This document shows, in pieces, positions 15,773 through 50,826 of a stretch of 64,000 nucleotides of DNA (the stretch's first letter is position 1; every line of letters starts with the position of its first letter). The notes under the pieces were generated by a model that saw nothing but the letters and a program-made list of their open reading frames with translations, had not been told where the DNA came from and did no database searches. The position numbers and the translations under genes were made by a program. Source of the DNA: Bacteroidia bacterium (lineage in GTDB: Bacteria; Bacteroidota; Bacteroidia; AKYH767-A; OLB10); assembly GCA_039931675.1 (NCBI GenBank), contig JBDTRM010000169.1, forward strand, positions 993 to 64,992, in the 5' to 3' direction.

Positions 15773-15891
15773 CTATTTTGTTTTTAAATTTATTGCGCTA
15801 ATGTAAACAAGAATTTGACTTATCTAAAGCAAATAAGGAATTTTACGATAAAAAATGATAGTTTTTTTTGCTTCATTTATTTTTGCAGGCG

Positions 15892-15925
15892 AAAAAAAAG
15901 GCTGTCCTTTTGAGACAGCCTCTTT
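15892..15925 (-). terminator. Rho-independent terminator of 15945..16607
   Basis: AGGCTGTC/GACAGCCT hairpin. On the minus strand it is followed by TTTTTTTT. Confidence 0.65.
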
Positions 15926-15944
15926 TAATAATTTATATTATGAC

Positions 15945-16607: not shown

Positions 16608-16776
16608 TTTATAATTATTTAAGATTTTAATTTTTGCGTGGCAAAGTTAATACCATTTATTAAAGTGCAAATTTTGAGTTCATCAAATATTTAACATTTG
16701 TGTTAAGCAAATTTAAATTTTCATATACATTTGCGCGCTTATAAACTATTAAACAATAATTAAATTAAACTTCAAA

Positions 16777-17106: not shown

Positions 17107-17124
17107 TCATAAATTGTGCATAAA

Positions 17125-17161
17125 TAAAAAATCCCGTTCATAATTGGACGGGATTTTTTAT
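17125..17161. terminator. Bidirectional terminator
   Basis: AAAAAATCCCGT/ACGGGATTTTTT hairpin between convergent genes. Confidence 0.7.
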
Positions 17162-17214
17162 GCTTGTTAATTGTAGAAAAACTACCACAACAATATTCTT
17201 TTGGCAGCAACTTT

Positions 17215-35306: not shown

Positions 35307-36098
35307 ATGAAAAGAATTAATTTTTATGTGTTTCTCCTGTTACTTTTATCTATTGCCTGTCATGATAAAGATGTGTCTGTTCCCGCAGCCAATAAAAACA
35401 CAATTGAAAACACATTCGATATTCCCGTTAAAATTAAAGGCACGCCTTTTCTCTCAATTCAACTGCTGCAAAAAACCTCTTATGATGTTGCTAACAGCTT
35501 TTATTACACAACCATCACTTTAAAAGTGATTAACACGTCCTCTTATTATTTGGATTCAGTAAAATATGAAGTGCTGTTTTTTAACGATAGCATCAAATCA
35601 TATTTAAATCTGGTAACCCGGTTTATAGGCACTGCTACCAATCTCGCTCCTGGCGGATTCACTGGTTACATTGATTTTTATGCAGGTCGGATAACAAATA
35701 TTACATCTGATTTTTTCGAAGCGGTAGTTATTAAACCCTATGCTTCAGGTTTATCCGCAAGCAATTTTTCGGGCGCCTGCTCAGGAAACTATACATTGTT
35801 TTCAGGTTATACTGATACCCATAAATCAGATGATCTTTCTTTTGGATATGTAGATGCGGGGGGAAGCTTAAAAATCTATATGAATCACGACTCAAACAAT
35901 CTGATTTTTAAAGCAATCATTGATGACGATGGTATAGCCTATGGAAAGCTATACGACTACTATAATGATCCCATTGAATTTAATAACGCTGCCGATCCCA
36001 TTCTAGGCTCTTCAAATGATTTTACTATCAACTTCAAAACCGATATTAACAATCCCGATAGTCTTCATATACTCAGGTTTTCATTACAAAAATCTTAA
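35307..36098 (+). CDS. Hypothetical lipoprotein
   Basis: 263 aa. Lipobox LLLLSIACHDK. Beta-rich. No family recognised. Confidence 0.7.
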   Translation: MKRINFYVFLLLLLSIACHDKDVSVPAANKNTIENTFDIPVKIKGTPFLSIQLLQKTSYDVANSFYYTTITLKVINTSSYYLDSVKYEVLFFNDSIKSYLNLVTRFIGTATNLAPGGFTGYIDFYAGRITNITSDFFEAVVIKPYASGLSASNFSGACSGNYTLFSGYTDTHKSDDLSFGYVDAGGSLKIYMNHDSNNLIFKAIIDDDGIAYGKLYDYYNDPIEFNNAADPILGSSNDFTINFKTDINNPDSLHILRFSLQKS

Positions 36099-36110
36099 TA
36101 CACATACACT

Positions 36111-37829
36111 ATGAAATCATTATTTATTAGTATCAGTTGCATAATGATGTTTATCTCCATCGGAGTGATAACAGCAAATGCCCAAAGTGGCTCCTCTCAA
36201 AGCAAATTAATTTACAACACCTTCTATCCCTTAACGGACACTGCAACCGGTAACACGGTAAACCATGAAATTAAGGTGCTCATCAACAACGATGGTTTGT
36301 ACTATTTTCAGCTAATGGATGTAAATGTTCCCGATTCGGCAATTAGCACACTTCAGTTGTCGCAAATGAACTACGGTAAAATTAATAACTGGTTGCAGAA
36401 TAATATTAAACCTGATGACGCCTCCGAAAAAACTAAAGTCGCTGATTTAACCGGCTTATTAATAATTAATACAGCAATAAATAAATTGAATATTGATGAA
36501 GATAGACCGCTTGCAGGCGAGTTTACTTTTAAAGATCAGTTAAAAGTAACATTCCGGGATAATGACAAAAAAGAAAGCCCGGTAAAAAAGGACAGTGTAA
36601 ATAAAGCGCCAGATGCTAAAGATTCCATAAGCAACAAGCAAACAACAACTGCTCACGACAGCCTGCTTACAGTAGAAGATATTGTTTTCGAATTTGACGA
36701 AGGCTTCATAACAACTATTAAGGTTACGGGTAAATTGCTTGGCGAAGAAATTATGTTTATTAATAAATATCCAATAGGGTTTTCAACAATCAGGGATTAT
36801 AATAATATGAGCCAAACGGACTTGTTTGCAGTTCAGGAAGAAGGTATAAAAAGTATTAAATTAGCTGACCTCATAGCACGATATAATCCCGAAATATATC
36901 ATCAGCAGCGTGAATACAATCCCGGTAATGGTGTCGTGGCCTGGACAAAAGAAGATGGCAAAAAATTAAAAGTTTACCACGATAAATCCACCGAGCTTTT
37001 CAAAGCAAAAGTATTCAGCGATTTTGTAGGTTTGGATGAGGCTAAACCTAATGGACTGGTGCAAATTGAAGTGTCAAAGAGATTTAATTTATGGACTAAA
37101 AGACATGGGGTAGGAAAAGAGGATGGATCAAATACAGGTTTCCTGGCATGTATTGAACCCTATGCAGCCATTACTAAAATTGAAGAAAACAATAAGTTCA
37201 TTCCCCTGCAGGAAAAATATTCCATCCAAAACGGGGTGCTGGTGAAAAAATCCTACATCTCCCGGCTCGACTTAATGCAATTTCAGAATTTAAGAACAGG
37301 GTTAGATCAAAATATCTTTTTATGGGATATACCTACATTAAAATCTACTTTTTTAATAAATTTTGGAATTAATCTTATTCGTACAGGAGTTATTGATAGT
37401 GCAAAAATTTTAGACCATAATAATGTTGTCAATACAAATGTGGTAGATAAATTCCAGGTTACATCAGTTTCATTTTATCCTGAATTCTGCTGGCAGATAT
37501 TCACCGATGCACGTATGAGTGCGTTTGCCTCTTACCGCCTCTCAAAATTATTCATGTACAGCGATAAGGTAATGGCCGTAAGCAATATTAAAAAGTTTGA
37601 GCAGGGCGATGAAGAAGAAAAAATTGGATGGATAAGCTCGTTTAATTTTACGCTCACCTTTAAGCCCAATGCAATGACAACAGAAAAGCAAGGCACCAAA
37701 ACAAATAATCCCGATAAAAACGAACTGTTTTTCAGGTTCGGTTATAACCAGATGAATAGCGAAATAAAACGAAACTACTTCCAGGCGCAGGTAGGTTATT
37801 CATTCTTCATTTTTAAGAAAAACAACTGA
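36111..37829 (+). CDS. Hypothetical secreted protein, possibly an outer-membrane beta-barrel
   Basis: 572 aa. Signal peptide ...ISIGVITANAQ. The C-terminal ~200 aa have an alternating pattern ending FFRFGYNQM...YFQAQVGYSFFIF. 12-nt gap from the lipoprotein gene. Confidence 0.7.
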   Translation: MKSLFISISCIMMFISIGVITANAQSGSSQSKLIYNTFYPLTDTATGNTVNHEIKVLINNDGLYYFQLMDVNVPDSAISTLQLSQMNYGKINNWLQNNIKPDDASEKTKVADLTGLLIINTAINKLNIDEDRPLAGEFTFKDQLKVTFRDNDKKESPVKKDSVNKAPDAKDSISNKQTTTAHDSLLTVEDIVFEFDEGFITTIKVTGKLLGEEIMFINKYPIGFSTIRDYNNMSQTDLFAVQEEGIKSIKLADLIARYNPEIYHQQREYNPGNGVVAWTKEDGKKLKVYHDKSTELFKAKVFSDFVGLDEAKPNGLVQIEVSKRFNLWTKRHGVGKEDGSNTGFLACIEPYAAITKIEENNKFIPLQEKYSIQNGVLVKKSYISRLDLMQFQNLRTGLDQNIFLWDIPTLKSTFLINFGINLIRTGVIDSAKILDHNNVVNTNVVDKFQVTSVSFYPEFCWQIFTDARMSAFASYRLSKLFMYSDKVMAVSNIKKFEQGDEEEKIGWISSFNFTLTFKPNAMTTEKQGTKTNNPDKNELFFRFGYNQMNSEIKRNYFQAQVGYSFFIFKKNN

Positions 37830-37859
37830 TACAGTTTACATCAAAAATTCACTCTATTG

Positions 37860-37895
37860 CCCCGGTTCCTAAATTTAGGATCCGGGGTTTTAAAT
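37860..37895 (+). terminator. Rho-independent terminator
   Basis: Near-perfect palindrome CCCCGGTTCCTAAA/TTTAGGATCCGGGG followed by TTTTAAATTTT. Confidence 0.7.
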
Positions 37896-38139: not shown

Positions 38140-38517
38140 ATGTTCCAAAGCAACCTCCCTTTAAATTGTCCACCAACGGATGCTCATGAAGATGAAAAAT
38201 GGCTTTATCGTATTTTGAAATCCACCTCTGTTTGTGAGGAAGAATTTGAAAATTATGTAACCATATATTCACATAAAGTTGAGTATAAAAAAATGTGCGG
38301 TGCCTACGCCATTTCACTTTATGAATTGAAAGAAAAGGCAATTGAAAATGCAAAAAAGAATCCTGTCATAGGTACGTATATCACAAAGATTTTAATAAAG
38401 CCTCAATACGGAAAACTTCACTGTGGCAATACTAAAACGGGTCATTATAACCTTTGGCTTTACACTACCTTTGACGCTTCTAAAGTTGAACACGAATTAA
38501 TTGAACCAATAGTATGA
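38140..38517 (+). CDS. Small hypothetical protein, first gene of the SNF2/methyltransferase operon
   Basis: 125 aa from ATG 38140 (the ORF track starts at TTG 38131). Its stop overlaps the SNF2 start (ATGA at 38514-38517). No family recognised. Confidence 0.6.
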   Translation: MFQSNLPLNCPPTDAHEDEKWLYRILKSTSVCEEEFENYVTIYSHKVEYKKMCGAYAISLYELKEKAIENAKKNPVIGTYITKILIKPQYGKLHCGNTKTGHYNLWLYTTFDASKVEHELIEPIV

Positions 38518-41500
38518 ATTTACTTGACGATAAATATGCAACATCTTCGCATCATCTCGATTTATTGAGATTGTATGACCTGCTGGATTTTGCAGATTTT
38601 CCTTTCTTGAAAGTAGATTTTGCCTCGAATGGAAAAAAGTTCTTGAATTATTTTGTGGCCCAGTTGGATTCTTATGAGCATCGTTTATTATCGGAGATAC
38701 ACCCTGCCAACCTTTTTCTTGTTGAAGCGGGAATTTTATCTGTGAGAGAAGCATTTAATAAAACAGAAAGTAGTATAGTTTATTCGTGCCTATACGATAA
38801 CGCAGAAAAAATTATAAAGTGTTTTGCTATTCCCATAAATGAATTCATTGCAGCAAATCCAATACCTGATGATTATATTGTTGAACTACCGAAGGAAAAT
38901 AACCATACACACCTTACTCCATATCATGCAAAGTATTATTCGTATGAGTTAACTAAACAAAGTTCTTCTGACAGTGTGGACAAACTTGCATCAGCAATTG
39001 TTGATGCACAGGTTCAATTAAATCCTCACCAGGTTGATGCTGCACTCTTTGCTTTTCAATCACCATTAAGCAAAGGTGTACTCTTAGCCGATGAGGTGGG
39101 TTTAGGTAAAACCATTGAAGCGGGATTGGTTATTTTGCAAAAATGGGCTGAGAGAAAGAGAAAAATATTAATCATTGTTCCTTCTAATTTAAGAAAGCAA
39201 TGGTACCAGGAATTACAGGAAAAATTTTTCCTTGAATCTGTAATTCTTGAAACAAAATCATTCAATTACCAGATTAAAAAACTATCGAACCTTAATCCAT
39301 TTGAACAAAAAGATAAAATAATTATTTGCTCGTATCATTTTGCCAAGTCAAGGGACACTTACATTAAATTAGTTAATTGGGATTTAGTTGTAATGGATGA
39401 AGCGCACCGCTTACGCAACGTATATCGTCCTGATAATAAAATTGGCAATGCAATTAAAAATGCGTTAAGTCATGTGGACAAGAAACTATTGCTTACTGCT
39501 ACTCCGTTGCAAAACACCCTCCTTGAATTATTTGGTTTAGTGAGCTTGATTGATGAAAATATTTTCGGGGATTTGAATAGCTTTAAGAACCAGTATAGCC
39601 ATGTTGTTGAGGGGGAGGAGAATTTTGATGATTTAAAAAACCGCTTATCTACAATCTCCAAGCGAACATTGCGTAGAGATGTACTCCAGTATATACCTTA
39701 TACCGAAAGGCACTCCATAACTGAAGACTTTTATCCTACTGAGCCAGAAGCAGATTTGTATGAAATGGTGAGCGACTATCTAAGTTCTCCTAAATTATAT
39801 GCGCTTCCTGCAAGCCAGCGTCAATTGATGACTTTGATTTTACGCAAACTTCTTGCCTCATCTACTTTTGCTATTTCAGGCACATTAAAAGCATTTGCCG
39901 ATAGGTTAGATGGATTAATCAGCCTGAATGCAAAGGCTAATGAAAATTTAGAAAAGGAAATTATAGAGAATTACGAAGGTTATGATGAAGCAAAAGAAGA
40001 GTGGGAAGAAGAGGAAGAAGAATCTAATGAAATAACAAATATAAAACCCAAACCCAAAAACAGTTTCACTCCTGAAGAATTAATTGACGTAAAAAAAGAA
40101 CTTGCTGATTTAAGAAAATTTCAGGCATTGGCTGAAGAGATACGTGAAAATTCAAAAGGCAATAAATTAATGATTGCTCTCAAAAAAGGATTTGAAAAAT
40201 TACAGGAAAAAGCAAATAAAAAAGCTATCATTTTTACAGAGTCAACCCGCACCCAACAATATCTTTTTGAAATTTTAAGCCAAACAGAATATGCGGGTAA
40301 AATTGTTTTATTTAACGGAACAAATAATGATGAGCAATCAAAAAAAATCTATCGGGACTGGTTGGATAAAAATAAAGGAACTGATAAAGTTACAGGAAGC
40401 GCAACGGCAGATAAGCGTTCTGCATTGGTAGAATACTTTAGGGATGAAGCAGAATTAATGATTGCTACCGAAGCTGCTGCCGAAGGTATCAACTTACAGT
40501 TTTGTTCTTTAGTAGTTAATTATGATTTACCTTGGAACCCGCAACGCATTGAACAACGGATAGGGCGATGTCATCGTTATGGTCAAAAATATGATGTAGT
40601 GGTGGTGAACTTTTTAAACAAAGGTAATGAAGCCGACCAGCGGGTATATGACATTTTAAAATTCAAGTTTCAATTATTTGATGGTGTTTTCGGAGCAAGC
40701 GATGAAGTGCTCGGAGCCATTGGTTCAGGGGTTGATTTTGAAAAGCGTATTGCAGAAATTTATAAGAACTACCGAAGCCCCGAAACCATTCAATTAGAAT
40801 TTGATTTTCTACAGGAACAGTACAAAACAGAAATTGATACAGAGGTTGGCAGAGCACGACAGAGCCTGTTGGAAAATTTTGATGCGGAAGTAAACGAAAA
40901 ACTAAAAATTCAAAGTGAGAACACGTTGAATAAATACGAAGAATGGTTGTGGTCGTTGAGCGCTTTCTTTTTAAAACCTTATGCTGAAATTGATAATGCC
41001 AATAAATGGTTCCTGTTAAAAGAAAATCCGTTTAAAGATTTAGACATTAATGAAGGACCTTATCGCCTTGCGAAAAATGTAGAGGATGCAAACACGTATC
41101 GCTTACAGCATCCGTTAGCGGAAAACATTATTGCAGTTTGCAAGCAAATGGAAATGGAAGAAAAAGAATTAACTTTCCATTACCAGGGCATTCCGAAAAT
41201 GACAGTGATTGAAAATCTTCGCGGACAAACAGGTTGGCTTACGGGCATCAATTACAATATAAAAACAGCCGAAGAGCAGGATTATGTTTTGCTTACTGCC
41301 CAGTGTGATGATGGCACTTTGTTAGACATTGACATTTGCCGTAAACTTTTTACACTTCCCGCTACGGAGAGTGCCGTTAACTATCCTTTTGAAGAATCTA
41401 AAAAAGAAACACTTTCGAAATTGAAAATGCAGTTAGATAGCTTGAAGGCTGAAATTACAAGTGAGATTGAATTGAAAAACGTTGGCTTCTATAAAATTGA

Positions 41501-41810
41501 ATTGGATAAATTAGAAAGATGGAGTGCAGATAAAAGGATTTCTGCCAAGCGAAACATTAAAGAAAAAGAACAGGAAAAAAAATTAGCAAAACGGGCATCG
41601 CGTGAAGCCGGAACAATGCAGGAGATTTTGAATTATGAAACAAGACTTAAGCAACTTCAAAAAGATTTGGATAAGGCAGAGGAAGAGTATAAAAGAGAGT
41701 CAGAAGAAATAGAAAATCAGTATGACGAATTATTAAAGGATATACGCAGGAAAATAGGTAAAGAATTTAAAGAAGAACAGTTATTCACCATTCGTTTCAG
41801 AATACAATAA
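38514..41810 (+). CDS. SNF2-family ATPase/helicase with unknown N-terminal domain and long C-terminal coiled coil
   Basis: 1098 aa. LADEVGLGKT (motif I), VVMDEAHRLRN (II), LLLTATPLQN (III), NYDLPWNPQRIEQRIGRCHRYGQ (VI). Confidence 0.92.
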   Translation: MNLLDDKYATSSHHLDLLRLYDLLDFADFPFLKVDFASNGKKFLNYFVAQLDSYEHRLLSEIHPANLFLVEAGILSVREAFNKTESSIVYSCLYDNAEKIIKCFAIPINEFIAANPIPDDYIVELPKENNHTHLTPYHAKYYSYELTKQSSSDSVDKLASAIVDAQVQLNPHQVDAALFAFQSPLSKGVLLADEVGLGKTIEAGLVILQKWAERKRKILIIVPSNLRKQWYQELQEKFFLESVILETKSFNYQIKKLSNLNPFEQKDKIIICSYHFAKSRDTYIKLVNWDLVVMDEAHRLRNVYRPDNKIGNAIKNALSHVDKKLLLTATPLQNTLLELFGLVSLIDENIFGDLNSFKNQYSHVVEGEENFDDLKNRLSTISKRTLRRDVLQYIPYTERHSITEDFYPTEPEADLYEMVSDYLSSPKLYALPASQRQLMTLILRKLLASSTFAISGTLKAFADRLDGLISLNAKANENLEKEIIENYEGYDEAKEEWEEEEEESNEITNIKPKPKNSFTPEELIDVKKELADLRKFQALAEEIRENSKGNKLMIALKKGFEKLQEKANKKAIIFTESTRTQQYLFEILSQTEYAGKIVLFNGTNNDEQSKKIYRDWLDKNKGTDKVTGSATADKRSALVEYFRDEAELMIATEAAAEGINLQFCSLVVNYDLPWNPQRIEQRIGRCHRYGQKYDVVVVNFLNKGNEADQRVYDILKFKFQLFDGVFGASDEVLGAIGSGVDFEKRIAEIYKNYRSPETIQLEFDFLQEQYKTEIDTEVGRARQSLLENFDAEVNEKLKIQSENTLNKYEEWLWSLSAFFLKPYAEIDNANKWFLLKENPFKDLDINEGPYRLAKNVEDANTYRLQHPLAENIIAVCKQMEMEEKELTFHYQGIPKMTVIENLRGQTGWLTGINYNIKTAEEQDYVLLTAQCDDGTLLDIDICRKLFTLPATESAVNYPFEESKKETLSKLKMQLDSLKAEITSEIELKNVGFYKIELDKLERWSADKRISAKRNIKEKEQEKKLAKRASREAGTMQEILNYETRLKQLQKDLDKAEEEYKRESEEIENQYDELLKDIRRKIGKEFKEEQLFTIRFRIQ

Positions 41811-43873
41811 TGGAAATAGGAAAAGTAGATTTAAAGAGTTTGGATTTGAAGCAGCACCAATTGGAAAAGCTGAAAGAAATTTTTCCTGAAGCCTTTATAG
41901 AAGGTAATAAGGTAGATTGGGATAAGTTGCGTCTTACTTTAGGAGAAAACATTGATACAGGTAAAGAACGTTTTGGAATGAACTGGCCCGGCAAAGCAGA
42001 TTGTTTCAAAACTATACAGCAGCCAAGTATAGGCACGCTGATACCCGACCGCGATGAAAGCATAAACTTTGATACCACGCAAAATACTTTTATTGAAGGC
42101 GACAACCTTGAAGCGCTAAAGCTTTTGCAAAAAGCTTATCTCGGAAAAATAAAAATGATTTATATAGACCCTCCGTATAATACAGGGGAAGACTTTATTT
42201 ATCCTGATAATTATAATGAGACCCTCGATACCTATTTAAAATATACAGGACAGATTGATAATGAAGGTAGAAAATATGCTACTAATCCTGAAACAGACGG
42301 ACGCTTTCATAGTAAATGGATGAATATGATATATTCACGATTATACATTGCAAAAAATTTATTGAAGGATGAAGGGGTTGTAGTAATACACATGGATGAA
42401 CATGAAATAGTCAATTTGACTATTATATTAAACGAACTTTTTGGTCCAGAAAATAATTTAGGTACTATCATTTGGGATAAAGGAAATCCAAAGGGTGATG
42501 CAAAAGGAGTTGCTATACAACATGAATATTTAACTGTATTTGCGAAAAACAAAGAGGCATTTGTAAAAGATAATTCATTAGAAAAAGAAAAAGAAAATGC
42601 TGACAGAATTTTAAGGAAAGCGAAGAAAATATTTTCAAGATTAGGGAAGGATGATTATCCTGATGCTATAAACGAAATTATTGAAGAGTTTGATATCAAG
42701 GAAGAAATATTTAGTGTTCACAAAAGAAAGATTGTTCTTGAAGACATTAATTCAGAGTTTAATGCCTGGATGAAAAAACAAGGAAATCTTTCAGGGGGAG
42801 AAAAAGCTTACATATTAATAGATAAGAACGGAGACGTATTTCAATCTGTTTCGATGGCTTGGCCCAACAAAAAGGAAGCTCCAGAAGATTATTTTACTCC
42901 TTTGATTCATCCTTTGACTAAAAAAGAATGCCCAGTTCCAGAGAGAGGTTGGCGTTATCCATCAGAGTCAATGAAAAAATACCTTGAAAAAAATGAAATT
43001 ATTTTTGGGCAAGACGAATCAACACAACCAAGAAGAAAATACCTTCTCAAGGATAATAAGTTTGAAAACCTTCCTTCAATCATTTTCTATGGAGGAAGTG
43101 ATGATAAGCTTTTTAAAGAATTGAAATTATCATTTGACAATCCAAAACCTTTAGAATTTGCTAAACTCTTATTGAAGATTTTTTTGAATAAAAAGGATGA
43201 TATCGTTATAGATTTTTTCGCTGGTTCAGGAACAACAGCCCATGCAGTATTAGAACTAAATTCAACTAATAATTTAAGCAGAAAATTTATTTGCGCACAA
43301 CTTCCTCAACCTACTGAAAAAAAATCTGCTGCAAGAAAACAAGGTTTTGAAACAATCTCACAACTTTGTGTCGAGCGAATAAAAAGGTCCATTTTAAGAA
43401 CAAAATTGAAATTTGCCGATAAGAATAACTTGTTTACTCCTGTTCAAGCAGAAGCTGATTTAGGTTTCAAAGTTTTCAAATTATCGCCCTCCAATTTTAA
43501 TGTATGGGATACCAATGTTAAACACGAGGATGAGGAGATAACGAAGCAATTGCAGTTGAATATACATAATCTTTCAGAACAAGCACTGGAAGAAGCTATT
43601 CTATTTGAACTACTTTTAAAATCAGGTTTTGAGTTAACTATACCTGTTCAGCAACTTGTGCTTGCCGATAAAAAGGTGTACAGCATAGCTAATGATGCAA
43701 TGCTTATTTGCCTTGATAAAAAATTAAATAAGGAAGTTTTAAAAGCCATTGCTGATAGACAACCCAGCCGCGTTATTTGTCTTGATGCAGGCTTTAATGG
43801 CAGCGATGAATTAAAAACAAATGCCGTGAAGCAGATGGAAAGCAAGGGAGTTGTAAAATTTATGACGGTATAA
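41810..43873 (+). CDS. Beta-class N6-adenine/N4-cytosine DNA methyltransferase (Type III Mod-like)
   Basis: 687 aa. IYIDPPYNTGEDF (motif IV) precedes IDFFAGSGTTAHAV (motif I), the permuted order of Type III Mod / N6_N4 MTases. Its start overlaps the SNF2 stop (TAATG). Confidence 0.92.
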   Translation: MEIGKVDLKSLDLKQHQLEKLKEIFPEAFIEGNKVDWDKLRLTLGENIDTGKERFGMNWPGKADCFKTIQQPSIGTLIPDRDESINFDTTQNTFIEGDNLEALKLLQKAYLGKIKMIYIDPPYNTGEDFIYPDNYNETLDTYLKYTGQIDNEGRKYATNPETDGRFHSKWMNMIYSRLYIAKNLLKDEGVVVIHMDEHEIVNLTIILNELFGPENNLGTIIWDKGNPKGDAKGVAIQHEYLTVFAKNKEAFVKDNSLEKEKENADRILRKAKKIFSRLGKDDYPDAINEIIEEFDIKEEIFSVHKRKIVLEDINSEFNAWMKKQGNLSGGEKAYILIDKNGDVFQSVSMAWPNKKEAPEDYFTPLIHPLTKKECPVPERGWRYPSESMKKYLEKNEIIFGQDESTQPRRKYLLKDNKFENLPSIIFYGGSDDKLFKELKLSFDNPKPLEFAKLLLKIFLNKKDDIVIDFFAGSGTTAHAVLELNSTNNLSRKFICAQLPQPTEKKSAARKQGFETISQLCVERIKRSILRTKLKFADKNNLFTPVQAEADLGFKVFKLSPSNFNVWDTNVKHEDEEITKQLQLNIHNLSEQALEEAILFELLLKSGFELTIPVQQLVLADKKVYSIANDAMLICLDKKLNKEVLKAIADRQPSRVICLDAGFNGSDELKTNAVKQMESKGVVKFMTV

Positions 43874-43874
43874 T

Positions 43875-46796
43875 ATGAAGCTTAAATTCGAGAGCAACCA
43901 AACTTTTCAGCGTGAAGCTATTGATGCAATCACTGATTTATTTGAAGGGCAACCTTTGCAAAAGGGAGACTTTTCAGTAAGCATTGAAGCAGCAGGTTCA
44001 GGGATTTTCAGTGGCCAGGTGCAAACAGAATTTGGTATTGGCAACAACATTTTATTAAACGAAGAAGCCCTGTTTAAAAACCTGCACATTGTACAGGATA
44101 AAAATGATTTAGACCGCACATCAGCAGGTGAATTTAACAGCAACGGTTTAAACTTTTCAGTTGAAATGGAAACAGGTACAGGTAAAACTTACGTTTACCT
44201 GCGCACCATTTTTGAACTAAGCCGCAAATACGGATTTAAAAAATATATCATTGTTGTACCCGGTGTTGCAATAAGAGAAGGCACATTAAAAACAATTGAA
44301 ATCACGAAAGAGCATTTTCGCTCGCTCTATAATAATATCGAATTAGAATCATTCGTGTATGATTCTAAAAAGCCTGTCCGCCTCAAGCAGTTTGCAACAA
44401 GCAACCATGTGCAGATTATGGTTATCAATATTGATGCATTCAATAAAGAAACCAATGTGTTCAACCAAGAGCGTAACCAGATGAATGGTTACAGCCCTAA
44501 AGATTTTATAAATTCAGTAAATCCCATTGTAATTATTGATGAGCCGCAAAGTGTTGATAAAACCGAAAAGGCAAAAGAAGCCATCAAGTCACTAAACCCG
44601 CTTTGCATTTTCCGCTATTCTGCAACTCATGCCAATCCTTATAACCTTGTTTACCGTTTAGACCCTGTGCGAGCTTATCAGATGCGATTGGTAAAACAAA
44701 TTGTAGTTGCCGAAGCAAAAGGCAGCGAGGCAGCCAATGATGCGTATATAAAACTTTTGAAAACCGATAATAAAAAAGGAATTGTTGCCGAATTACTGAT
44801 TCATAAAAATACCAATGATGGACCAAAAGAGAAAAAGGTTAAAGTTAAGCAGGGCGACAGCCTGTTCAGAAAAAGTGATGAAAGACATTTATATAAAGAC
44901 GGGTATGAAGTAGTTGACATTAACAGTGAGCCAGGAAATGAATTTATAGACTTCAGCAACGGAAAGCGATTGATGCTTGGGCAGGAATCAGGTGGTATAG
45001 GTGAAGAGTTAATCGAATTGCAAATAAGGCAAACTATTCAAAGACATCTCGACAAGGAACTTTTAATGAAAGATAAAGGCATTAAAGTGCTTTCTTTATT
45101 TTTTATTGATACAGTTCCCAACTATCGTATATATGGAAGTGATGGAGTAGTTGAAAAAGGAAAATATGCAATTTGGTTTGAGAAACACTACAATGAATTA
45201 ATTGTATTAGAAAAATATAAACCGTTAAATAAATTTACGGCAGAGCAAATTCATAACGGTTATTTTTCGCAGGATAAAAGAACTATAACACCTTTTGAAG
45301 TTGTAACCAATAAAACAAATACACAAGCAGAAGATTCAACTTTCAATCTTATTATGCGTGATAAGGAACGTTTGTTGGATATGAATGAGCCATTGCGCTT
45401 TATTTTTTCACACTCTGCACTTAAAGAAGGATGGGATAATCCGAATGTGTTCCAGATATGTTCGCTCCGCGAAATGGGAAGCAGCCGTGAAAGAAGACAA
45501 ACTTTGGGAAGGGGTTTAAGATTACCTGTTAACCAGGATGGAGACCGGATTTTTGACGAGAATATAAATAAGCTCACCGTAATTTCTTCTGAGGGGTATG
45601 CTGATTTTGCCGTGGGTTTGCAAAAAGAATATGAAGATGACTGCGGTGTTACGTTTGGCAAGGTAAATAAAAATGCCTTTGCAAAGCTGTCCATGCTTAT
45701 TGACGATGAAGAAAAACACGTAGGCAGAGAAACCTCAGAAAAAATATGGGATGCGTTAAAGCAAAACGGATTTATTGATGATAAAGGAAAAATCACTTCA
45801 ACTTTTGACCCGAAAAAAGAAGTTTTCACACTGAATCTTCCTCCTGAATTCAGCAACATAGAAAATGAAATAATTGAAACGTTAGAAAGCTACCGCTTAG
45901 AAAGACATATTAAGCAAGCCGAAGAGCCACGCAAATTACGTTTGAAAAGTAATAAAGAATTACGTGAGCAGGACTTAGATAAAGAATTTGAAGAATTATG
46001 GAACCGCATAAAACATAAAACCACTTACGAGGTTGTTTATTCAAGCGATGAGCTGATTGCAAATTGCATAAAATCCATTGGCAAAATGGAAAAGATTGAG
46101 CCGGTAAGTATAAGTTACCGCGAAGCATTGCTTGATGTTGAGATGAAAGGTGTAACAGCGCAGGAAACAAGAGCCAACTATTACACCTTAAAATACAAAG
46201 GTGCATTGCCTGATATTATTACCTATTTGCAAAACGAAACTGAATTAACCCGCGCAACCCTTGTTAAAATATTGACTGAAAGTAATAGCATAAATTATTT
46301 TCTAATCAATCCTCAACGCTACATGGATGCTATCGCAGCAATAATCAGGAAAGAATTATACCGCCTGATGGTTGACGGAATCAAGTATGAAAAAATCGGG
46401 GGTGATGAATGGCACATGCGTTTATTTGAAGATAAGGAAGTGATGAGTTATTTATCAAACCGCTGCGAAGTAAAAAAGTCGGTGTATGATGCCATTGTTT
46501 ATGAAAGTGAGATAGAGCGAAGATTTGCCGAAGACCTTGATAAACGAGACGACATAAAACTATTTGTAAAACTTCCCTCATGGTTTGAGGTGGATACCCC
46601 TATTGGCAAATACAATCCAGATTGGGCAATTGTAAAAGAAAATGATTCTGCCATTTATCTTGTTTGCGAAACAAAGGGAACAAGGGACTTTTTGAAATTA
46701 AGGACGAGTGAAGCTGATAAGATAAAATGTGGGAAGAAGCATTTTGAGATACTCAATACAACCTTTAAAGTAGCTGTTAGTGCAAAAGAAATTTGA
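43875..46796 (+). CDS. Type III restriction Res-like DEAD/DEAH helicase with C-terminal PD-(D/E)xK nuclease
   Basis: 973 aa. FSVEMETGTGKTY (Walker A), VIIDEPQS (motif II), ALKEGWDNPNVF. C-terminal E...YNPDWAIV...LVCETKG nuclease motif. 1-nt gap from the MTase gene. Confidence 0.92.
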   Translation: MKLKFESNQTFQREAIDAITDLFEGQPLQKGDFSVSIEAAGSGIFSGQVQTEFGIGNNILLNEEALFKNLHIVQDKNDLDRTSAGEFNSNGLNFSVEMETGTGKTYVYLRTIFELSRKYGFKKYIIVVPGVAIREGTLKTIEITKEHFRSLYNNIELESFVYDSKKPVRLKQFATSNHVQIMVINIDAFNKETNVFNQERNQMNGYSPKDFINSVNPIVIIDEPQSVDKTEKAKEAIKSLNPLCIFRYSATHANPYNLVYRLDPVRAYQMRLVKQIVVAEAKGSEAANDAYIKLLKTDNKKGIVAELLIHKNTNDGPKEKKVKVKQGDSLFRKSDERHLYKDGYEVVDINSEPGNEFIDFSNGKRLMLGQESGGIGEELIELQIRQTIQRHLDKELLMKDKGIKVLSLFFIDTVPNYRIYGSDGVVEKGKYAIWFEKHYNELIVLEKYKPLNKFTAEQIHNGYFSQDKRTITPFEVVTNKTNTQAEDSTFNLIMRDKERLLDMNEPLRFIFSHSALKEGWDNPNVFQICSLREMGSSRERRQTLGRGLRLPVNQDGDRIFDENINKLTVISSEGYADFAVGLQKEYEDDCGVTFGKVNKNAFAKLSMLIDDEEKHVGRETSEKIWDALKQNGFIDDKGKITSTFDPKKEVFTLNLPPEFSNIENEIIETLESYRLERHIKQAEEPRKLRLKSNKELREQDLDKEFEELWNRIKHKTTYEVVYSSDELIANCIKSIGKMEKIEPVSISYREALLDVEMKGVTAQETRANYYTLKYKGALPDIITYLQNETELTRATLVKILTESNSINYFLINPQRYMDAIAAIIRKELYRLMVDGIKYEKIGGDEWHMRLFEDKEVMSYLSNRCEVKKSVYDAIVYESEIERRFAEDLDKRDDIKLFVKLPSWFEVDTPIGKYNPDWAIVKENDSAIYLVCETKGTRDFLKLRTSEADKIKCGKKHFEILNTTFKVAVSAKEI

Positions 46797-46802
46797 TAGC
46801 AA

Positions 46803-47624
46803 ATGCTTTTAGTAAATAGTATATCACCCATCAGCAAAATCATTCCGACTAACGGAAGCAATCCGGCTTTGGTGCTATGCGAAGACCTCACAGAATATTA
46901 TTGCAAATACAGCCGCTACACACCTGCAAATAAGTTACTCATTGAATTCATTTCATCATCCTTTTTAAAAGTATGGAATGTCCCGACACCTGATTTTGCT
47001 TTTGTTGAAATAGCAGCAGAACATGTTCCTGCCGAAATATTGTCAAACAGAATTTCGCGCAATGATTTTCTGATACCCACATTTGGTTCACAGCACTTAG
47101 AACATTCGCATGAAATTGATGAATCAGTTATTCTATCATGGAATAATAAACGAGGACAGGTAAATAAAATAATAAATAAAGAAGATTTCTTACGTATAGG
47201 ATTGTTTGATTTGTGGATGGCAAACGAAGACCGGAATCACAATAATTATAATTTAATGATAAGTGCGAAAGAAGAAGGAAGCGTTATTTATGCAATTGAC
47301 CATGAAAAATGTTTCAATTCAGGTATCCTTGACAACGTACATCCCATTCAGATTTTAACTGAAGACGAATCAATTTTAAAAACGGACTTGGTTCCCATAT
47401 TATTTAACAATGAATTTCACTTAGAAGATGCCATTCGTGGGATTTTAGAAGGATATAGTAATTCTGTTAATGAATGTAAGCATCAATTACCCGGAATATT
47501 GCAGCAAATACCCGAAAGGTGGAACATAAATACAGATGAAATTGCTACCTTGCTTGAGAAAAATATCTTTGCGCCAGAATGGATGGAACTGACAGTGCAG
47601 ACATTTAAAGAATATTTGAATTAA
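46803..47624 (+). CDS. HipA-like serine/threonine kinase-fold protein
   Basis: 273 aa. LWMANEDRNHNNYN (catalytic-loop D.H..N pattern) and YAIDHEKCF (metal-binding Asp). 6-nt gap from the Res gene. Confidence 0.75.
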   Translation: MLLVNSISPISKIIPTNGSNPALVLCEDLTEYYCKYSRYTPANKLLIEFISSSFLKVWNVPTPDFAFVEIAAEHVPAEILSNRISRNDFLIPTFGSQHLEHSHEIDESVILSWNNKRGQVNKIINKEDFLRIGLFDLWMANEDRNHNNYNLMISAKEEGSVIYAIDHEKCFNSGILDNVHPIQILTEDESILKTDLVPILFNNEFHLEDAIRGILEGYSNSVNECKHQLPGILQQIPERWNINTDEIATLLEKNIFAPEWMELTVQTFKEYLN

Positions 47625-47646
47625 ACTTGCGTTATAAAAGGAAAAA

Positions 47647-48450
47647 ATGAAAAGCACTTATTCTATAGTCTATTTATCTCTTAAGCCAACGGTTCAGGAG
47701 CAGATAGCCATTGGCTTGCTTCTGACCAATGGAGAGAAAGCGCATTTTGAATATTCCCCGCTCAAGCTTAAGTACATTTCAAAACTGATGAATAACGAAA
47801 CGTATGGTTTTGTAAACAATTATTTATCAGGCTTGAAATCTGACTTTAAAGGAACAAAATTATCTTCAGTTGATTATTTAAGCTATCTGACTAAGTACAG
47901 GAATAACCTGGTTATATTTTCGCAAGCTGTTGACATAAATATGGAAACTAATGAAGCTAATTTCAAAAAGCTTTTTGTAAAGTTCATTTTTGAAGATGCT
48001 CCGTTGAAATCAGTTTTACCTTCAGAAAAAGTGAACATTAATACTAAGGTTAAAAATATTTTATATCCTAAAATAAAGGATAATGTTAATATAGATAAGA
48101 CGTTTACTCCTAAGGAAATTCCATCATTGCTTATTCCAACCGTGAAGGTTAATTTTATCGGGCGTAATGATAACCCTGTTGCCGGTGAGGTAATAGATTT
48201 TGAAGGAAGTATAAATTCCTTATCCAATAAGATTTCCCACTTTATCAGCCTTATAAAAGCTTTTGAAATTGAAAAAGAAGAAGGCAAATTTTTCGTTATT
48301 GGCGATGAACCCAGAAGAGAAAACCCATCGCATGAAACATGGCAGCATCTTAAAGAATGGCAATCAGTAGAAATAGTTTCAACAAACGAAATTGAAAAGG
48401 TTTCTGATTATATTCATACGCATCATGTTAGGCCTTTTCAGCAAAATTAA
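47647..48450 (+). CDS. DUF3037-like protein
   Basis: 267 aa. N-terminal YSIVYLSLKPTVQEQIAIGLLLTNG fits the DUF3037 N-terminal pattern as I recall it. 22-nt gap from the kinase gene. Confidence 0.65.
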   Translation: MKSTYSIVYLSLKPTVQEQIAIGLLLTNGEKAHFEYSPLKLKYISKLMNNETYGFVNNYLSGLKSDFKGTKLSSVDYLSYLTKYRNNLVIFSQAVDINMETNEANFKKLFVKFIFEDAPLKSVLPSEKVNINTKVKNILYPKIKDNVNIDKTFTPKEIPSLLIPTVKVNFIGRNDNPVAGEVIDFEGSINSLSNKISHFISLIKAFEIEKEEGKFFVIGDEPRRENPSHETWQHLKEWQSVEIVSTNEIEKVSDYIHTHHVRPFQQN

Positions 48451-48601: not shown

Positions 48602-49264
48602 TTATTGAGTTTTTGATTTGCGCAATATTAAAAACCCTTTCAAATAAAGAGAGAAAACAGCAACTTCAATCAATGCATGTACCCACCAAAGTTTTGTGGC
48701 AAGCGTTGTTCCGAATAAAAGAAACAGGAATACAGAACAGAAAAAATAAAAAAATATACCTGCTAAAAACCAAAAATCTGAAGACATTATTTCATCTCCT
48801 TTTTCAGCAATATTCAATAAAGCATTTGCCGCAAAAAATGATATAGCAACTGAAGTAAAGCCGTCATATATGTTATTGAGATTATATTCAGGTTTATTAA
48901 TTATTATGGTGATTAGCCATAAAACAAAAGAAAAACAAATCAGAAAAACAGACAGATAACTTTTAATTTTTTTCCGGTTAAACCCGGGAACAAACCATAA
49001 ATAAAAAATAGTTTCAATCAAAGCATAACCCGAATACCTTATTGATTGAGTGCTTTGATGAAATTCAAAATCAATAAAAAAAATATTGAGGCTGGTGAAA
49101 TCAACAAAAAAAGCAAATAATAAAAACCACCAAAAGGCTTTGTAGATTGTATAAGTTTCTTTTAAAACAAACCTTCCGGCAATAATTGGCACTAACGCAT
49201 AAAAAATAGTAAAGACTTTAAAATCAAAATCAACGTGCCTCAGGTATTCAATTGATTCAGTCAT
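48602..49264 (-). CDS. Polytopic membrane protein (about 6-7 TM), unknown family
   Basis: 220 aa, hydrophobic throughout. Its start abuts the stop of 49265..49957. Confidence 0.7.
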   Translation of the reverse strand: MTESIEYLRHVDFDFKVFTIFYALVPIIAGRFVLKETYTIYKAFWWFLLFAFFVDFTSLNIFFIDFEFHQSTQSIRYSGYALIETIFYLWFVPGFNRKKIKSYLSVFLICFSFVLWLITIIINKPEYNLNNIYDGFTSVAISFFAANALLNIAEKGDEIMSSDFWFLAGIFFYFFCSVFLFLLFGTTLATKLWWVHALIEVAVFSLYLKGFLILRKSKTQ

Positions 49265-49957
49265 CTATGGAAGGGTACGCTCAAGAATTATTTTGTTCTC
49301 CCAGGCTATATTAAAGTCAGAATTAATCTGAAATAAAATAATTCTATAGGGGTTTTTCAGCTCTGTGTCATCATACCCTATTGTACAAAAAATGCCTACA
49401 CCATTTCCTAATTCATTGTACATTTTTGACAAATCGTGATCATAGAAATAATCGCTGACGACAAGGTTGGGATTTTGAACAAATTCTTTAAAACGATTAA
49501 CATCCGGGGCGATTTGATCCCATGTAGTTTGCTGGGCCTCCACATCATCAAAATAAAATGATTTAAGATTTTCTTTTACAACTTCAGGATCATCGGAACC
49601 CGTATAAAGCCATGTATCAGTATAATAAACGATATCATCTGGGTTTAACATAACATCTGAAGCATTCGTAGGCTCATTCTCATCATAATCAAGTTTTGCA
49701 GCAGCCAAATAAAAAGACTCTCTGCCTCCTTCATTACTATAACAAAGGAAAAAAGTTGCTCCATTTCCATCGGATAGATCAAGTAATTGCTCTTTGGTGA
49801 TAATTCCTCCAAAACCCAACCTTCGCGAATAAGCATCCGAATCATCCCCAAGTTTAAAGTAATTAGCAAGCAAATATCCAGCTACGTTAAAAGATATGTC
49901 ATGACGGAATCCTCCTCTGCTTAAAATGAATTGGAATAGTTTATTTTGTTTGTCCAT
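49265..49957 (-). CDS. Hypothetical protein, paralogue A (GFRHDI ... NKIILERTLP family)
   Basis: 230 aa. Shares GFRHDI.(F/P)NVA, FGG, TFFLC, AAAKL.Y, GYD(D/E)TELKNP(Y/F)R and a terminal NKIILERTLP with 50008..50826. Confidence 0.7.
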   Translation of the reverse strand: MDKQNKLFQFILSRGGFRHDISFNVAGYLLANYFKLGDDSDAYSRRLGFGGIITKEQLLDLSDGNGATFFLCYSNEGGRESFYLAAAKLDYDENEPTNASDVMLNPDDIVYYTDTWLYTGSDDPEVVKENLKSFYFDDVEAQQTTWDQIAPDVNRFKEFVQNPNLVVSDYFYDHDLSKMYNELGNGVGIFCTIGYDDTELKNPYRIILFQINSDFNIAWENKIILERTLP

Positions 49958-50007
49958 TTGTTTGTGATTTTTGAAATTAAGTTTGTAAGTATTTTGGATG
50001 TTATATT

Positions 50008-50826
50008 CTACGGCAATGTTCTTTCTAAAATTATTTTATTCCAATAATTCAAAGTATTATCATTATTGACTTCAAACATAATTAATCTGAATGGGTTTTT
50101 TAATTCAGTTTCATCATAACCAACAAAGACATAAATTCCTTTGCATTTATCATTGTACGCTTCGTCATAAAGCTTCGAAAGATCATCTCGATGAAGAAAG
50201 TTACTCACGATATTATTTGAAGGGTAAGCTTTGCTCCCAAAATTATCTACATAGGTTTTTACCTCGCTCCATTTTAATTGCGGCTGCGCAGGTGCTGGTG
50301 GGGGCACACTCGGTGGACTTGAATTAATAAAGCTAATAACAGCACGGTAGTCTAAAGGTTGTGCGTATGTCCACTTTATGCAATTGGAAAAATAAAGTCT
50401 ATCGTTATCTCTAAGATTAACAGATCCGGAATTCTCGCCAACTGAAGGGTTGTATTTTAGCTTTGCAGCAGCAATGTGAAACTCACCATCCTTTAAGCAT
50501 AAAAAAAAAGTTGAACCAAGCCAATTCCCAGCTAAGTCCTTGATAGAGGCCATATCAAAAAAGCCTCCAAATCCATATTTTTCAGCAAAGTTAATTTGTA
50601 CGGTCAAAGGTAAGTCAGCTTGGTAATGAAGGATATTTTGTTGAATTAAAAATGATGCAACATTTGGAGTAATGTCATGCCGAAAACCGGGTCGCGATTT
50701 ATTTTCCTTATCATTATTAATTGTCTCAATAAGGGAATTGACTTTTTCATTTGTGTAATAAAGCCATACAATAAGTCCTGCAAGGCCAAAAATAATAAGA
50801 GTTAAAACAATTCGGGTTTTCATCAT
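50008..50826 (-). CDS. Hypothetical protein, paralogue B with N-terminal TM anchor
   Basis: 272 aa. TM IVLTLIIFGLAGLIVWLYY, then the same conserved blocks as paralogue A. Confidence 0.7.
   Translation of the reverse strand: MMKTRIVLTLIIFGLAGLIVWLYYTNEKVNSLIETINNDKENKSRPGFRHDITPNVASFLIQQNILHYQADLPLTVQINFAEKYGFGGFFDMASIKDLAGNWLGSTFFLCLKDGEFHIAAAKLKYNPSVGENSGSVNLRDNDRLYFSNCIKWTYAQPLDYRAVISFINSSPPSVPPPAPAQPQLKWSEVKTYVDNFGSKAYPSNNIVSNFLHRDDLSKLYDEAYNDKCKGIYVFVGYDETELKNPFRLIMFEVNNDNTLNYWNKIILERTLP

Follow-up and report, generated by a model that had tools for sequence, protein, structure and literature searches.

Gene content and boundaries of the locus

The window that we analysed is a stretch of 64,000 nucleotides from a Bacteroidia genome, in which six ORFs follow one another on the + strand at 38140-48450. 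The ORF listing and a direct reading of the junctions reproduce the strand, overlaps and gaps reported for these genes in the first-pass annotation. The first gene, p1 (38140..38517), encodes a small PD-T4-10A-like protein of 125 aa counted from its ATG; a TTG lies upstream of this codon at 38131. It shares an ATGA overlap at 38514-38517 with the second gene (38514..41810), which codes for a SNF2-family ATPase of 1098 aa with a DrmD-like core and a DUF6575-like N-terminal extension spanning approximately residues 1-133 (38514..38912). The stop codon of the SNF2 gene in turn overlaps the start of the third gene in the sequence TAATG at 41808-41812. The latter (41810..43873) encodes a Type III Mod, namely a beta-class amino-methyltransferase with a DPPY motif, and is separated by 1 nt from the gene for a Type III Res (43875..46796), in which a SF2 ATPase is combined with a C-terminal PD-(D/E)XK endonuclease. 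After a further 6 nt comes a HipA_2-family Ser/Thr kinase of 273 aa (46803..47624) and, after 22 nt, a 267 aa protein, P6 (47647..48450), which family-level profile matches and gene order mark as a probable, divergent DUF3037-like partner of the kinase.

The strong terminator previously noted on the 5' side proved to be real: a + strand hairpin (about 37859-37888) with UUUU behind it (37859..37892 in all) has a dG of -21.4 kcal/mol (z -5.4) and none of 200 shuffled sequences was equally stable. It belongs to the two genes that precede the unit, as their predicted intrinsic terminator, and marks the unit's 5' limit. Downstream of P6 there is, again as reported, a convergent ORF (48602-49264), and no + strand terminator-like sites were found inside the six-gene unit. 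The tight spacing of the six genes suggests that they are co-transcribed as a single operon.

The kinase pair at the 3' end

The kinase is recovered by the Pfam model PF20613 (HipA_2; 6e-17, 62 bits vs a cut-off of 27), the PADLOC model PDC-M66A (8.4e-8) and phrog_3162 (1.4e-26), and its catalytic motifs are intact (DRNHNN at residue 143 and IDHEKCF at 165). It presumably acts as the toxin, or effector, in a module of two genes. Its partner P6 has no match of its own in Pfam or PADLOC. Within the P6 family, which comprises 712 representatives, 15/43 members match PF11236 (DUF3037) with a best E of 8e-6 (6/12 in a smaller set) and no other family recurs; hence, of the labels originally given to the proteins of the operon, SNF2, Mod, Res and HipA-like stand as they were, while DUF3037 applies to the sixth more weakly, through its family. 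P6 has two predicted domains, and its AF2 model has a pLDDT of 81.9. In every related locus with assessable upstream sequence, a P6 homologue is found directly behind a HipA_2 kinase.

The combination of a HipA-like kinase with a DUF3037 protein is already listed as the candidate PDC-M66 and has been validated as a stand-alone defence, DS-6/HipAD; the defence depends on the kinase there, and losing the partner has a toxic effect (PMC12548924, PMC13092281). By homology and gene order the kinase and P6 are a PDC-M66/HipAD-like pair: a HipA_2 kinase is followed by a probable DUF3037-family protein of ~270 aa, and the pair is, like its counterparts, mobile and mostly autonomous (PMC12548924, PMC13092281). 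It differs from them in that P6 is missed by both the Pfam DUF3037 and the PADLOC PDC-M66B models, has a C-terminal domain that is not DUF1829 (Pfam), and is encoded with its kinase right behind a restriction gene, with no intergenic promoter region belonging to the pair.

The first-pass annotation had proposed a single undescribed system in which the kinase is coupled to the nuclease. In its fullest form, this would be one integrated six-component system with the kinase and its partner wired to the restriction core, the kinase being triggered by blocked restriction, for instance, or phosphorylating, and so regulating, Res or SNF2, and with p1 as a dedicated subunit. The recurrence of the gene set in three related loci speaks for such an arrangement, and the expectation that the six-gene synteny would recur holds to differing degrees: locus L116 has all six genes in the same order, L081 has them with SNF2 and Mod set apart by additional genes, and L083 preserves the frame around another Mod/Res, with a module of the Nsn type embedded. 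Moreover, the pair follows Res in 4/6 informative loci of the p1 clade vs 0/39 loci elsewhere in the family (Fisher p = 1e-4, on a small count of phylogenetically non-independent loci), with junctions of 2-48 nt and no intervening terminator. Its arrival behind Res happened on at least two occasions, involving distant kinase lineages and Res proteins of two different classes; the L116 pair shows just 25% and 24% identity to that of the window, whereas the remaining four genes reach 50-66%. In L101 the pair also adjoins a Type III Res, though convergently. Such recurrence exceeds what simple chance stacking predicts, and a functional link could lie behind it.

Nevertheless, the pair is found on its own in at least eight loci with at least 4 kb of upstream sequence (L089, L090, L093, L094 and L104-L107), in none of which did profile HMMs find SNF2, Mod or Res upstream of it; elsewhere, it thus occurs independently of these genes, an outcome that the first-pass annotation had itself named as counting against its proposal. 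In L088 it lies behind an unrelated PIN/HerA/NurA/methyltransferase cluster. Conversely, L115 and L085, both members of the closest clade and otherwise operons of the L083 type, lack the pair altogether. The R-M-linked pairs are not monophyletic, and homologous pairs are known to defend alone (PMC12548924, PMC13092281). Finally, sister operons carry unrelated defence genes at equivalent positions, with inserts including AbiU, PDC-S05, NsnA/NsnC, LmuB-like and SIR2-like genes, and this makes a stacking of defence modules the simplest reading of the locus. Any mechanistic link between the kinase and restriction is hypothetical, and we regard full integration of the six components as unlikely. 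We instead consider it fairly probable that one operon holds three separable defence modules: the SNF2-Mod-Res core, the fusion of a DUF6575-like domain accompanied by p1, and a captured kinase pair. The last of these might act as a toxin-antitoxin-type abortive-infection module that forms a second defence layer, and its capture at the 3' end of the operon would lead to its being co-transcribed and co-transferred with the rest.

The SNF2-Mod-Res core

The Mod protein matches PF01555 (N6_N4_Mtase; 5.2e-32) and PADLOC MTase_III (8.5e-195), and its motif IV (DPPYNTGEDF at residue 120) precedes motif I (FAGSGTT at 470). Its ends are 44-78% identical among relatives, while the centre fails to align, as for a target-recognition domain; it is probably an N6-adenine methyltransferase. 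Res is detected by PADLOC REase_III (2.8e-299), PF04851 (ResIII; 2e-15) and PF19778 (RE_endonuc; 1.4e-36 at residues 867-966), and by NF012027 (1.6e-106) at 357 bits, which is below the equivalog cut-off of 564 bits. The motifs ETGTGKTY (residue 99), DEPQ (222), PDW (915) and ETKG (932) are all in place; indeed, every motif quoted earlier for SNF2, Mod, Res and the kinase is present. Hence, at the gene level, a beta-class Mod with a variable centre stands directly before a Res with SF2 and C-terminal PD-(D/E)XK domains, as in Type III R-M systems of the EcoP15I/StyLTI type, an assignment on which PADLOC and NCBIfam agree. The hallmark of Type III systems is the hemimethylation of an asymmetric site, together with ATP-dependent cleavage for which two unmethylated sites in inverse orientation are needed. 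To our knowledge, classical Type III systems have no DrmD-like SNF2 in the operon. The locus was rightly set apart from a plain Type III system: with a SNF2 gene just upstream of Mod/Res and extra modules at both ends, in the form of the small ORF and the kinase pair, it is a composite.

The SNF2 protein matches PF00176 (SNF2-rel_dom; 8.6e-35) and PF00271 (Helicase_C; 1.7e-21), and bears the motifs GLGKT (residue 196), DEAH (295), TATPLQN (328) and QRIGRCHRYGQ (681). Its C-terminal region is family-specific and ends in a coiled coil. The commoner form of the protein is 960 aa long and begins at the position equivalent to residue 133 of the window protein; conservation is high, mean column identity being 65% across phyla. 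The first-pass annotation had overlooked that the SNF2-Mod-Res triad is, in its own right, conserved and very widespread. In a species-representative genome collection at least 600 stretches matched, from many phyla, and 599 of the matches listed encode a relative. The order SNF2, Mod, Res is near-universal in a set of 80 loci from many phyla, in 54 of which Res exceeds 600 aa and falls into three classes, and the triad is also carried on conjugative IncFII Klebsiella plasmids. We found no paper in the literature that names it; the triad is thus widespread and conserved, yet apparently unnamed.

In this core, Mod would methylate host sites, Res would be the ATP-dependent nuclease and the DrmD-like SNF2 a DNA translocase, which may assist the restriction complex as an auxiliary motor. 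It is conceivable that it clears or remodels protein-bound invading DNA or, alternatively, that it supplies a second translocating partner for cleavage. A quite different possibility is that SNF2 and p1 form an independent defence beside a plain Type III system, so that three unrelated systems would share the locus and there would be no helicase-assisted restriction. Single-gene SNF2 defences do exist, for example HmaA (PMC11232893), and in related loci SNF2 and Mod are often parted by further defence genes, which indicates that this junction tolerates separation. Despite these insertions, SNF2, Mod and Res keep their order and strand across phyla, with Res of three classes and Mod of two size classes; those of the 80 loci that are sufficiently long have a methyltransferase downstream, bar contig ends or a few cases; and the stop codon of the window's SNF2 gene runs into the start of Mod. 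We hence hold an independent SNF2 to be improbable. The Hma system (HmaA SNF2 helicase, methylase and ATPase) resembles the locus in encoding a SNF2 with a methyltransferase, and ATPases are frequent in the sister operons; unlike Hma, the window has a Type III Res, its SNF2 matches the HmaA model at 1e-53, far more weakly than DrmD, and Pfam detects no NOV_C domain in it.

A degenerate or variant class 1 DISARM (DrmD, DrmMI, DrmA, DrmB and DrmC) is a very remote prospect: the best models for SNF2 are those of DrmD (3e-194 in PADLOC; 1.5e-194 for NCBIfam NF038318) and a methyltransferase gene comes next, an order resembling the drmD-drmMI order that Ofir and colleagues reportedly described in 2018, but the NF038318 score of 648.6 bits falls short of the cut-off of 950, with a match confined to the helicase core at model positions 22-655 of 868, the C-terminal region is another one, and the methyltransferase and nuclease are a canonical Type III Mod and Res, as in the sister loci. 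Among the operon genes and flanking ORFs scanned, DrmA, DrmB and DrmC are never the top PADLOC model; the sole DrmA match (4.2e-42) is a lower-ranked one of SNF2 itself, and none of the window ORFs scanned with Pfam has a DUF1998 or PLD domain. With these core genes missing from the ORFs scanned, membership in class 1 DISARM is ruled out, in agreement with the original annotation.

p1 and the extended N-terminus of SNF2

The small ORF had been listed as an extra; it is no orphan, since p1 matches PADLOC PD-T4-10_A (PDLC04023) at 2.2e-9, as do the six homologues scanned from its clade (7e-8 to 6e-11). No match was found in Pfam, NCBIfam or PHROG. In hhalign comparisons p1 aligns with the small partners of DUF6575 proteins at 98.8% probability (E 1e-16), and on this evidence it is a homologue of PD-T4-10A. 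PD-T4-10 is a validated two-gene abortive-infection toxin-antitoxin system of E. coli, in which the toxic B is neutralised by A (Vassallo et al. 2022; PMC9519451). Comparable A-like small genes overlap or abut a gene of ~400 aa in Rahnella, Pantoea, Bacillus and Rhodococcus; the neighbour is annotated as DUF6575 in Rahnella and Pantoea, the Rhodococcus protein aligns to that of Rahnella, and the one in Bacillus has no detectable family.

A further feature passed over in the earlier annotation is a DUF6575-like domain at the N-terminus of SNF2 that co-varies with the small ORF. The extension matches Pfam DUF6575 at model positions 12-124 with an E of 1.1e-4 and 22.1 bits, under the cut-off of 26.6, and 3/5 relatives weakly match the same region of the model. 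Against DUF6575/PD-T4-10B-type proteins, hhalign gives 92.3% probability and an E of 5.5e-7 over 77 columns of shallow alignments (7 and 4 sequences). We found no PADLOC match to PD-T4-10_B at E up to 1, and a separate B gene is absent from the operon. p1 and the extension co-occur in 7/7 loci of a small Bacteroidota clade with SNF2 proteins of 1100 aa, and in 0/80 other loci.

The N-terminal ~130 residues of SNF2 thus resemble the DUF6575 N-terminus of PD-T4-10B-type proteins. As in PD-T4-10, an A homologue overlaps a downstream gene whose product begins with a DUF6575-like region; that product, in contrast, is a SNF2 helicase rather than a toxin of ~350-430 aa, with ~80-110 residues of DUF6575 recognisable and the remainder of B, which presumably bears the toxicity, absent. 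We propose that in this Bacteroidota clade SNF2 acquired a DUF6575-type domain, namely the one found at the N-terminus of a PD-T4-10B-like toxin, with the overlapping p1 gene preceding it. By analogy with the neutralisation of B by A, p1 may bind the N-terminal domain of SNF2 and restrain the latter until infection. The fusion of a DUF6575-like domain to SNF2, together with p1, would be the new part of this locus.

The operon and its surroundings

The six + strand ORFs at 38140-48450 encode, in order, the small protein p1 (125 aa), a SNF2 protein (1098 aa), the Mod and Res proteins, a HipA_2 kinase and a sixth protein, P6 (267 aa), in a Bacteroidia MAG whose locus tags across the window take the form ABI723_155xx; the contig measures 75,323 bp. 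The layout proposed by the first-pass annotation withstood scrutiny: its coordinates are exact, the junctions that it listed (an ATGA overlap at 38514-38517, a TAATG overlap at 41808-41812 and gaps of 1, 6 and 22 nt) can be read in the sequence, every motif that it quoted is present at a sensible position, and a convergent ORF indeed lies 3' of the operon. The upstream terminator that it had claimed corresponds to a hairpin of -21.4 kcal/mol (z = -5.4; equally stable shuffles, 0 of 200) followed by UUUU, and no terminator-like site was found on the + strand within the six-gene unit. The spacing of the six genes suggests that they are co-transcribed. A sigma-70 promoter scan returned 51 sites as against 44 expected from shuffles, which is no better, and a scan for the Bacteroidetes TAnnTTTG element found no convincing promoter 5' of the kinase gene; internal promoters may be present all the same.

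The operon sits within a ~28-kb stretch (23-51 kb) in which most genes have no known function, with housekeeping genes on either side and neither a tRNA nor an integrase in the window. At the edge of this stretch, on the - strand at 23990-25684, is a gene for a 564-aa protein combining DUF1186 with a C-terminal SEC-C motif. Two overlapping + strand ORFs at 32700-34261 have no PADLOC match; the second of them (33305-34261) encodes a protein with a YEATS domain of the prokaryotic type (PF20305, 4.5e-23), a domain described in predicted NTP-dependent conflict systems. Given these YEATS and SEC-C/DUF1186 proteins, the stretch looks variable and defence-rich. Immediately 5' of the operon, a + strand gene pair at 35307-37829 (263 and 572 aa), closed by the strong terminator, is without a Pfam or PADLOC match and is possibly a further defence pair yet to be characterised; convergent with the operon are three consecutive - strand ORFs of 220, 230 and 272 aa (48602-50826), none of which matches Pfam or PADLOC.

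The SNF2, Mod and Res triad

Mod matches MTase_III (8.5e-195) and Res matches REase_III (2.8e-299), with an RE_endonuc domain at the Res C-terminus; these profile matches identify the two unambiguously as Type III proteins. The DPPY motif of Mod presumably indicates N6-adenine as the target. The SNF2 protein contains the SNF2-rel_dom and Helicase_C domains and finds its closest models in DrmD (PADLOC, 3e-194; NF038318, 648.6 bits, under the 950-bit cut-off), the NF038318 match being restricted to the helicase core (model positions 22-655 of 868). DISARM membership was rejected for want of the core genes and because the scores fall under the cut-off. With no operon gene or scanned flanking ORF having DrmA, DrmB or DrmC as its best match, the operon is not DISARM, in agreement with the first-pass annotation. 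The SNF2 proteins of the Hma, BREX-related/MANTIS and Zorya systems give matches much weaker than DrmD, and their partner genes differ.

A word-indexed protein search recovered at least 8000 relatives of the SNF2 protein at E <= 1e-30, and among the matches listed most are ~960 aa long and ~55% identical. In a one-genome-per-species scan at least 600 stretches matched, and a relative is encoded in 599 of those 600. We retained 80 general loci from Bacteroidota, Pseudomonadota, Planctomycetota, Acidobacteriota, Bacillota, Actinomycetota, Verrucomicrobiota and others, in which tblastn and protein clustering revealed the order SNF2, Mod, Res nearly everywhere that the contig permits. A Res of more than 600 aa is present in 54 of these 80, and Mod was found in 68 of the 91 loci of a larger set. 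The related loci have three Res classes, all labelled REase_III by PADLOC. Among SNF2, Mod and Res, conservation is highest in SNF2, with a mean column identity of 65% across phyla. From this synteny across phyla and Res classes, together with the stop/start overlap of SNF2 with Mod, we infer with moderate confidence that SNF2 is a functional third partner of the Type III core.

The same triad is carried by conjugative IncFII Klebsiella plasmids and other plasmid records, where it is annotated merely as 'SNF2-related protein', 'DNA methyltransferase' and 'DEAD/DEAH box helicase', and where SNF2 is often preceded by a small HTH gene that overlaps its start. The matching plasmid records number 50, chiefly from Salmonella and Klebsiella. 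In the Klebsiella quasipneumoniae plasmid pKAM622_3 (L117; NZ_AP026395.1, 77475-87227), the triad lies near the psiB/ssb leading region and adjoins IS elements, with the HTH gene overlapping the SNF2 start in the same place as p1 does in the window. In the closest full relative of the operon, locus L081, Mod is split at 15822-17730 into ORFs of 121 and 518 aa that together align to the window Mod; the split may reflect a frameshift, misassembly or the sort of phase variation known for Type III mod genes.

No paper that names or studies the triad turned up in a literature search on SNF2, DrmD or DISARM alongside Type III restriction that reached few subscription journals or REBASE notes, and an earlier description may exist. 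The unnamed SNF2-Type III triad is worth follow-up.

p1 and the N-terminal extension of SNF2

The small first protein unexpectedly matches PADLOC PD-T4-10_A (2.2e-9). In the PD-T4-10 system B is toxic, A neutralises B, and A is undeletable (PMC9519451). Most SNF2 family members begin at residue 133 of the window protein; among the best 120 of at least 8000 matches, eight are ~1100 aa long with the N-terminus covered. Every readable ~1100-aa locus (L081, L083, L085, L114, L115 and L116) has a p1 homologue (39-50% identity) that runs into the SNF2 start or lies just before it, the exception in placement being L114, where it is frameshifted and ends ~100 nt upstream of SNF2. The extensions of these SNF2 proteins are 38-50% identical, and PD-T4-10_A is matched by all six p1 homologues scanned. 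Neither p1 nor the extension was found in any of the 80 general loci. Being present together in every readable ~1100-aa locus and absent from the 80 others, the two features co-vary perfectly.

The extension shows a sub-threshold but repeated similarity to the first half of Pfam DUF6575 (1.1e-4 for the window protein, model positions 12-124), the same region being matched by the extensions of three of five relatives. Taken alone, the SNF2 N-domain matches neither PD-T4-10_B nor any other PADLOC family at E up to 1, and the C-terminal 303 aa of the protein likewise match no PADLOC family at that level. When p1 was searched against plasmids by tblastn, it recovered small genes in Rahnella and Bacillus, each overlapping or abutting a gene of ~400 aa; the Rahnella partner is an annotated DUF6575 protein (Pfam, 5.9e-35) with a PD-T4-10_B match (8.6e-5), and the same pairing of small and ~400-aa genes occurs in Pantoea and Rhodococcus. 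Profile-profile comparison relates p1 to the small partners of DUF6575-type proteins (98.8% probability, E 1e-16, 109 columns) and the SNF2 extension to the DUF6575 protein N-terminus (92.3%, E 5.5e-7, 77 columns, from shallow alignments). DUF6575 is listed among newly defence-linked domains (PMC9519451). We read this as the fusion of a B-type toxin's N-terminal, A-binding portion to a SNF2 ATPase, which brought A along; p1 might bind and gate SNF2, and the DUF6575 assignment itself is sub-threshold and rests on shallow alignments. The fusion and its A-type partner are worth follow-up.

Other searches with p1 yielded a single non-self match in the word-indexed protein search and none in phage records, while the p1 and DUF6575 family profiles recovered nothing meaningful among PDB sequences. 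An AlphaFold model of p1 built from two sequences has a pLDDT of 39.6. A RES/ADP-ribosyltransferase-like reading of the Arg, Ser and His conserved in the p1 alignment was dropped, having no profile support. On the Rahnella aceris plasmid p2 (L118, 5938-7661), the PD-T4-10-like A and DUF6575 pair occupies a prophage late-region slot after antiterminator Q, flanked by MT-A70 and site-specific methyltransferase genes, and the C-terminus of its DUF6575 protein weakly matches DUF7226.

The kinase-P6 pair, proposed module stacking and their meaning

The fifth protein is a HipA_2 kinase (PF20613, 6e-17; PDC-M66A, 8.4e-8; phrog_3162, 1.4e-26). P6 has no direct match in Pfam, PADLOC, NCBIfam or PHROG, nor does the PDC-M66B model match it. 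Its family is modest (712 cluster representatives at E <= 0.001, almost all ~280 aa), and DUF3037 of Pfam is matched by 15 of 43 diverse members (best E 8e-6), no other family recurring. The DUF3037 label given to P6 at first pass thus appears right at the superfamily level, the window protein being too divergent to score. The P6 model is confident (pLDDT 81.9) and predicts two domains; it has no significant match in the PDB (best E 0.03), and the weak matches are mostly PD-(D/E)XK-fold nucleases, a likeness we take as a lead only. The P6 family profile found nothing meaningful among PDB sequences, and full-length unnamed relatives are present in phage proteomes in BFVD. A HipA-like kinase with DUF3037 constitutes the PADLOC candidate PDC-M66, and in two studies it has been validated as a defence in its own right (PMC12548924, PMC13092281): in the Retron-Sda1 operon deletion of the kinase abolished defence and deletion of the DUF3037 gene was toxic (PMC12548924), and DS-6/HipAD defence requires the kinase catalytic residue (PMC13092281).

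A search seeded with P6 yielded 27 further loci, with a HipA_2 kinase directly 5' of P6 wherever the upstream region is assessable. In eight of them with at least 4 kb upstream (L089, L090, L093, L094, L104-L107), neither tblastn nor profile HMMs found SNF2, Mod or any of the three Res classes upstream of the pair. Elsewhere it stands beside other genes: in L088 (3210-10825) it ends a cluster of PIN_8, DUF87 (HerA-like), NurA and N6_N4 methyltransferase genes, and in L101 a convergent Res lies downstream. The pair is therefore an autonomous mobile module, with an independence from SNF2, Mod and Res that the first-pass annotation itself had named as counting against its composite system. L088 is itself a further methyltransferase-containing putative defence operon. 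A second kinase-P6 copy (L087; P0122, ABI723_22135) occurs on a different contig attributed to the window's MAG; its P6 is 86% and its kinase C-terminus 96% identical, the contig ends inside the kinase, and an RNase_Zc3h12a-domain protein and an S1-domain protein follow.

Within the loci having p1 and the extended SNF2, the pair directly follows Res in the window, L081, L083 and L116 and is absent from L115 and L085, as against 0 of 39 informative loci in the wider family (Fisher p = 1e-4, from a small count of related loci); this association with restriction is not random. The Res that precedes the pair in L083 is of another class; in L116, kinase and partner share just 25% and 24% identity with their window counterparts, as against 50-66% for p1, SNF2, Mod and Res; and in a neighbour-joining tree restriction-linked pairs are interspersed with stand-alone ones. 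These three observations indicate that the pair was placed at this spot more than once, and L083 and L085, which differ essentially in its presence or absence, that it is gained or lost as a whole.

Sister operons (L001, L013, L023, L037, L083) have PADLOC-recognised defence genes embedded at the SNF2-Mod or the Mod-Res junction: AbiU-like proteins, LmuB/PtuA-like ATPases, PDC-S05, a SIR2/pAgo-associated-like protein, a Ppl/AriA-like ATPase, and NsnA and NsnC. Evidently these operons accumulate unrelated defence modules at their junctions, with the triad as the scaffold that collects them. This habit would account for the 3' HipA_2 pair without a mechanistic link to the nuclease, and we favour stacking of modules over an integrated system. 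The constituent pieces are of known kinds, namely Type III restriction-modification, a PDC-M66/HipAD-like pair and PD-T4-10A. The feature reported at first pass is thus real and accurately observed, and its interpretation as one composite, possibly layered restriction-and-dormancy system is too unified.

In Type III families, methylation by Mod falls on a single strand of an asymmetric site, and Mod2Res undergoes an ATP-driven switch into sliding, cleaving upon collision at inverted unmethylated sites (PMC4490356, PMC3413136). Very tentatively, SNF2 might act as an auxiliary translocase, exposing protein-bound DNA or serving as a collision partner, and p1 might restrain it through the DUF6575-like domain until infection. 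By homology, the kinase would be a growth-arresting toxin held by P6, acting as a population-level back-up. The far-reaching version, a distinct three-component Type III class with SNF2 obligatory, here infection-gated by p1 and the DUF6575N graft and with the HipA_2/DUF3037 pair wired in as a fail-safe once restriction is defeated, making a single restriction-then-dormancy machine, strikes us as rather improbable.

For half a century, work on Type III restriction has dealt with an enzyme of two proteins. If the SNF2 translocase holds up as a conserved third partner, one that hundreds of species and clinical Klebsiella plasmids carry, this picture would need revision, and the access of some Type III systems to protein-coated or site-poor DNA could be explained. 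The p1/DUF6575N graft, should it be confirmed, suggests that the PD-T4-10 A/B interface is a portable regulatory switch attachable to a helicase, and it would offer a handle on what PD-T4-10A senses. Operons that absorb AbiU, PDC-S05, Nsn and HipA pairs would serve as bait for new defence modules and as a test case for the cooperation of co-transcribed defences.
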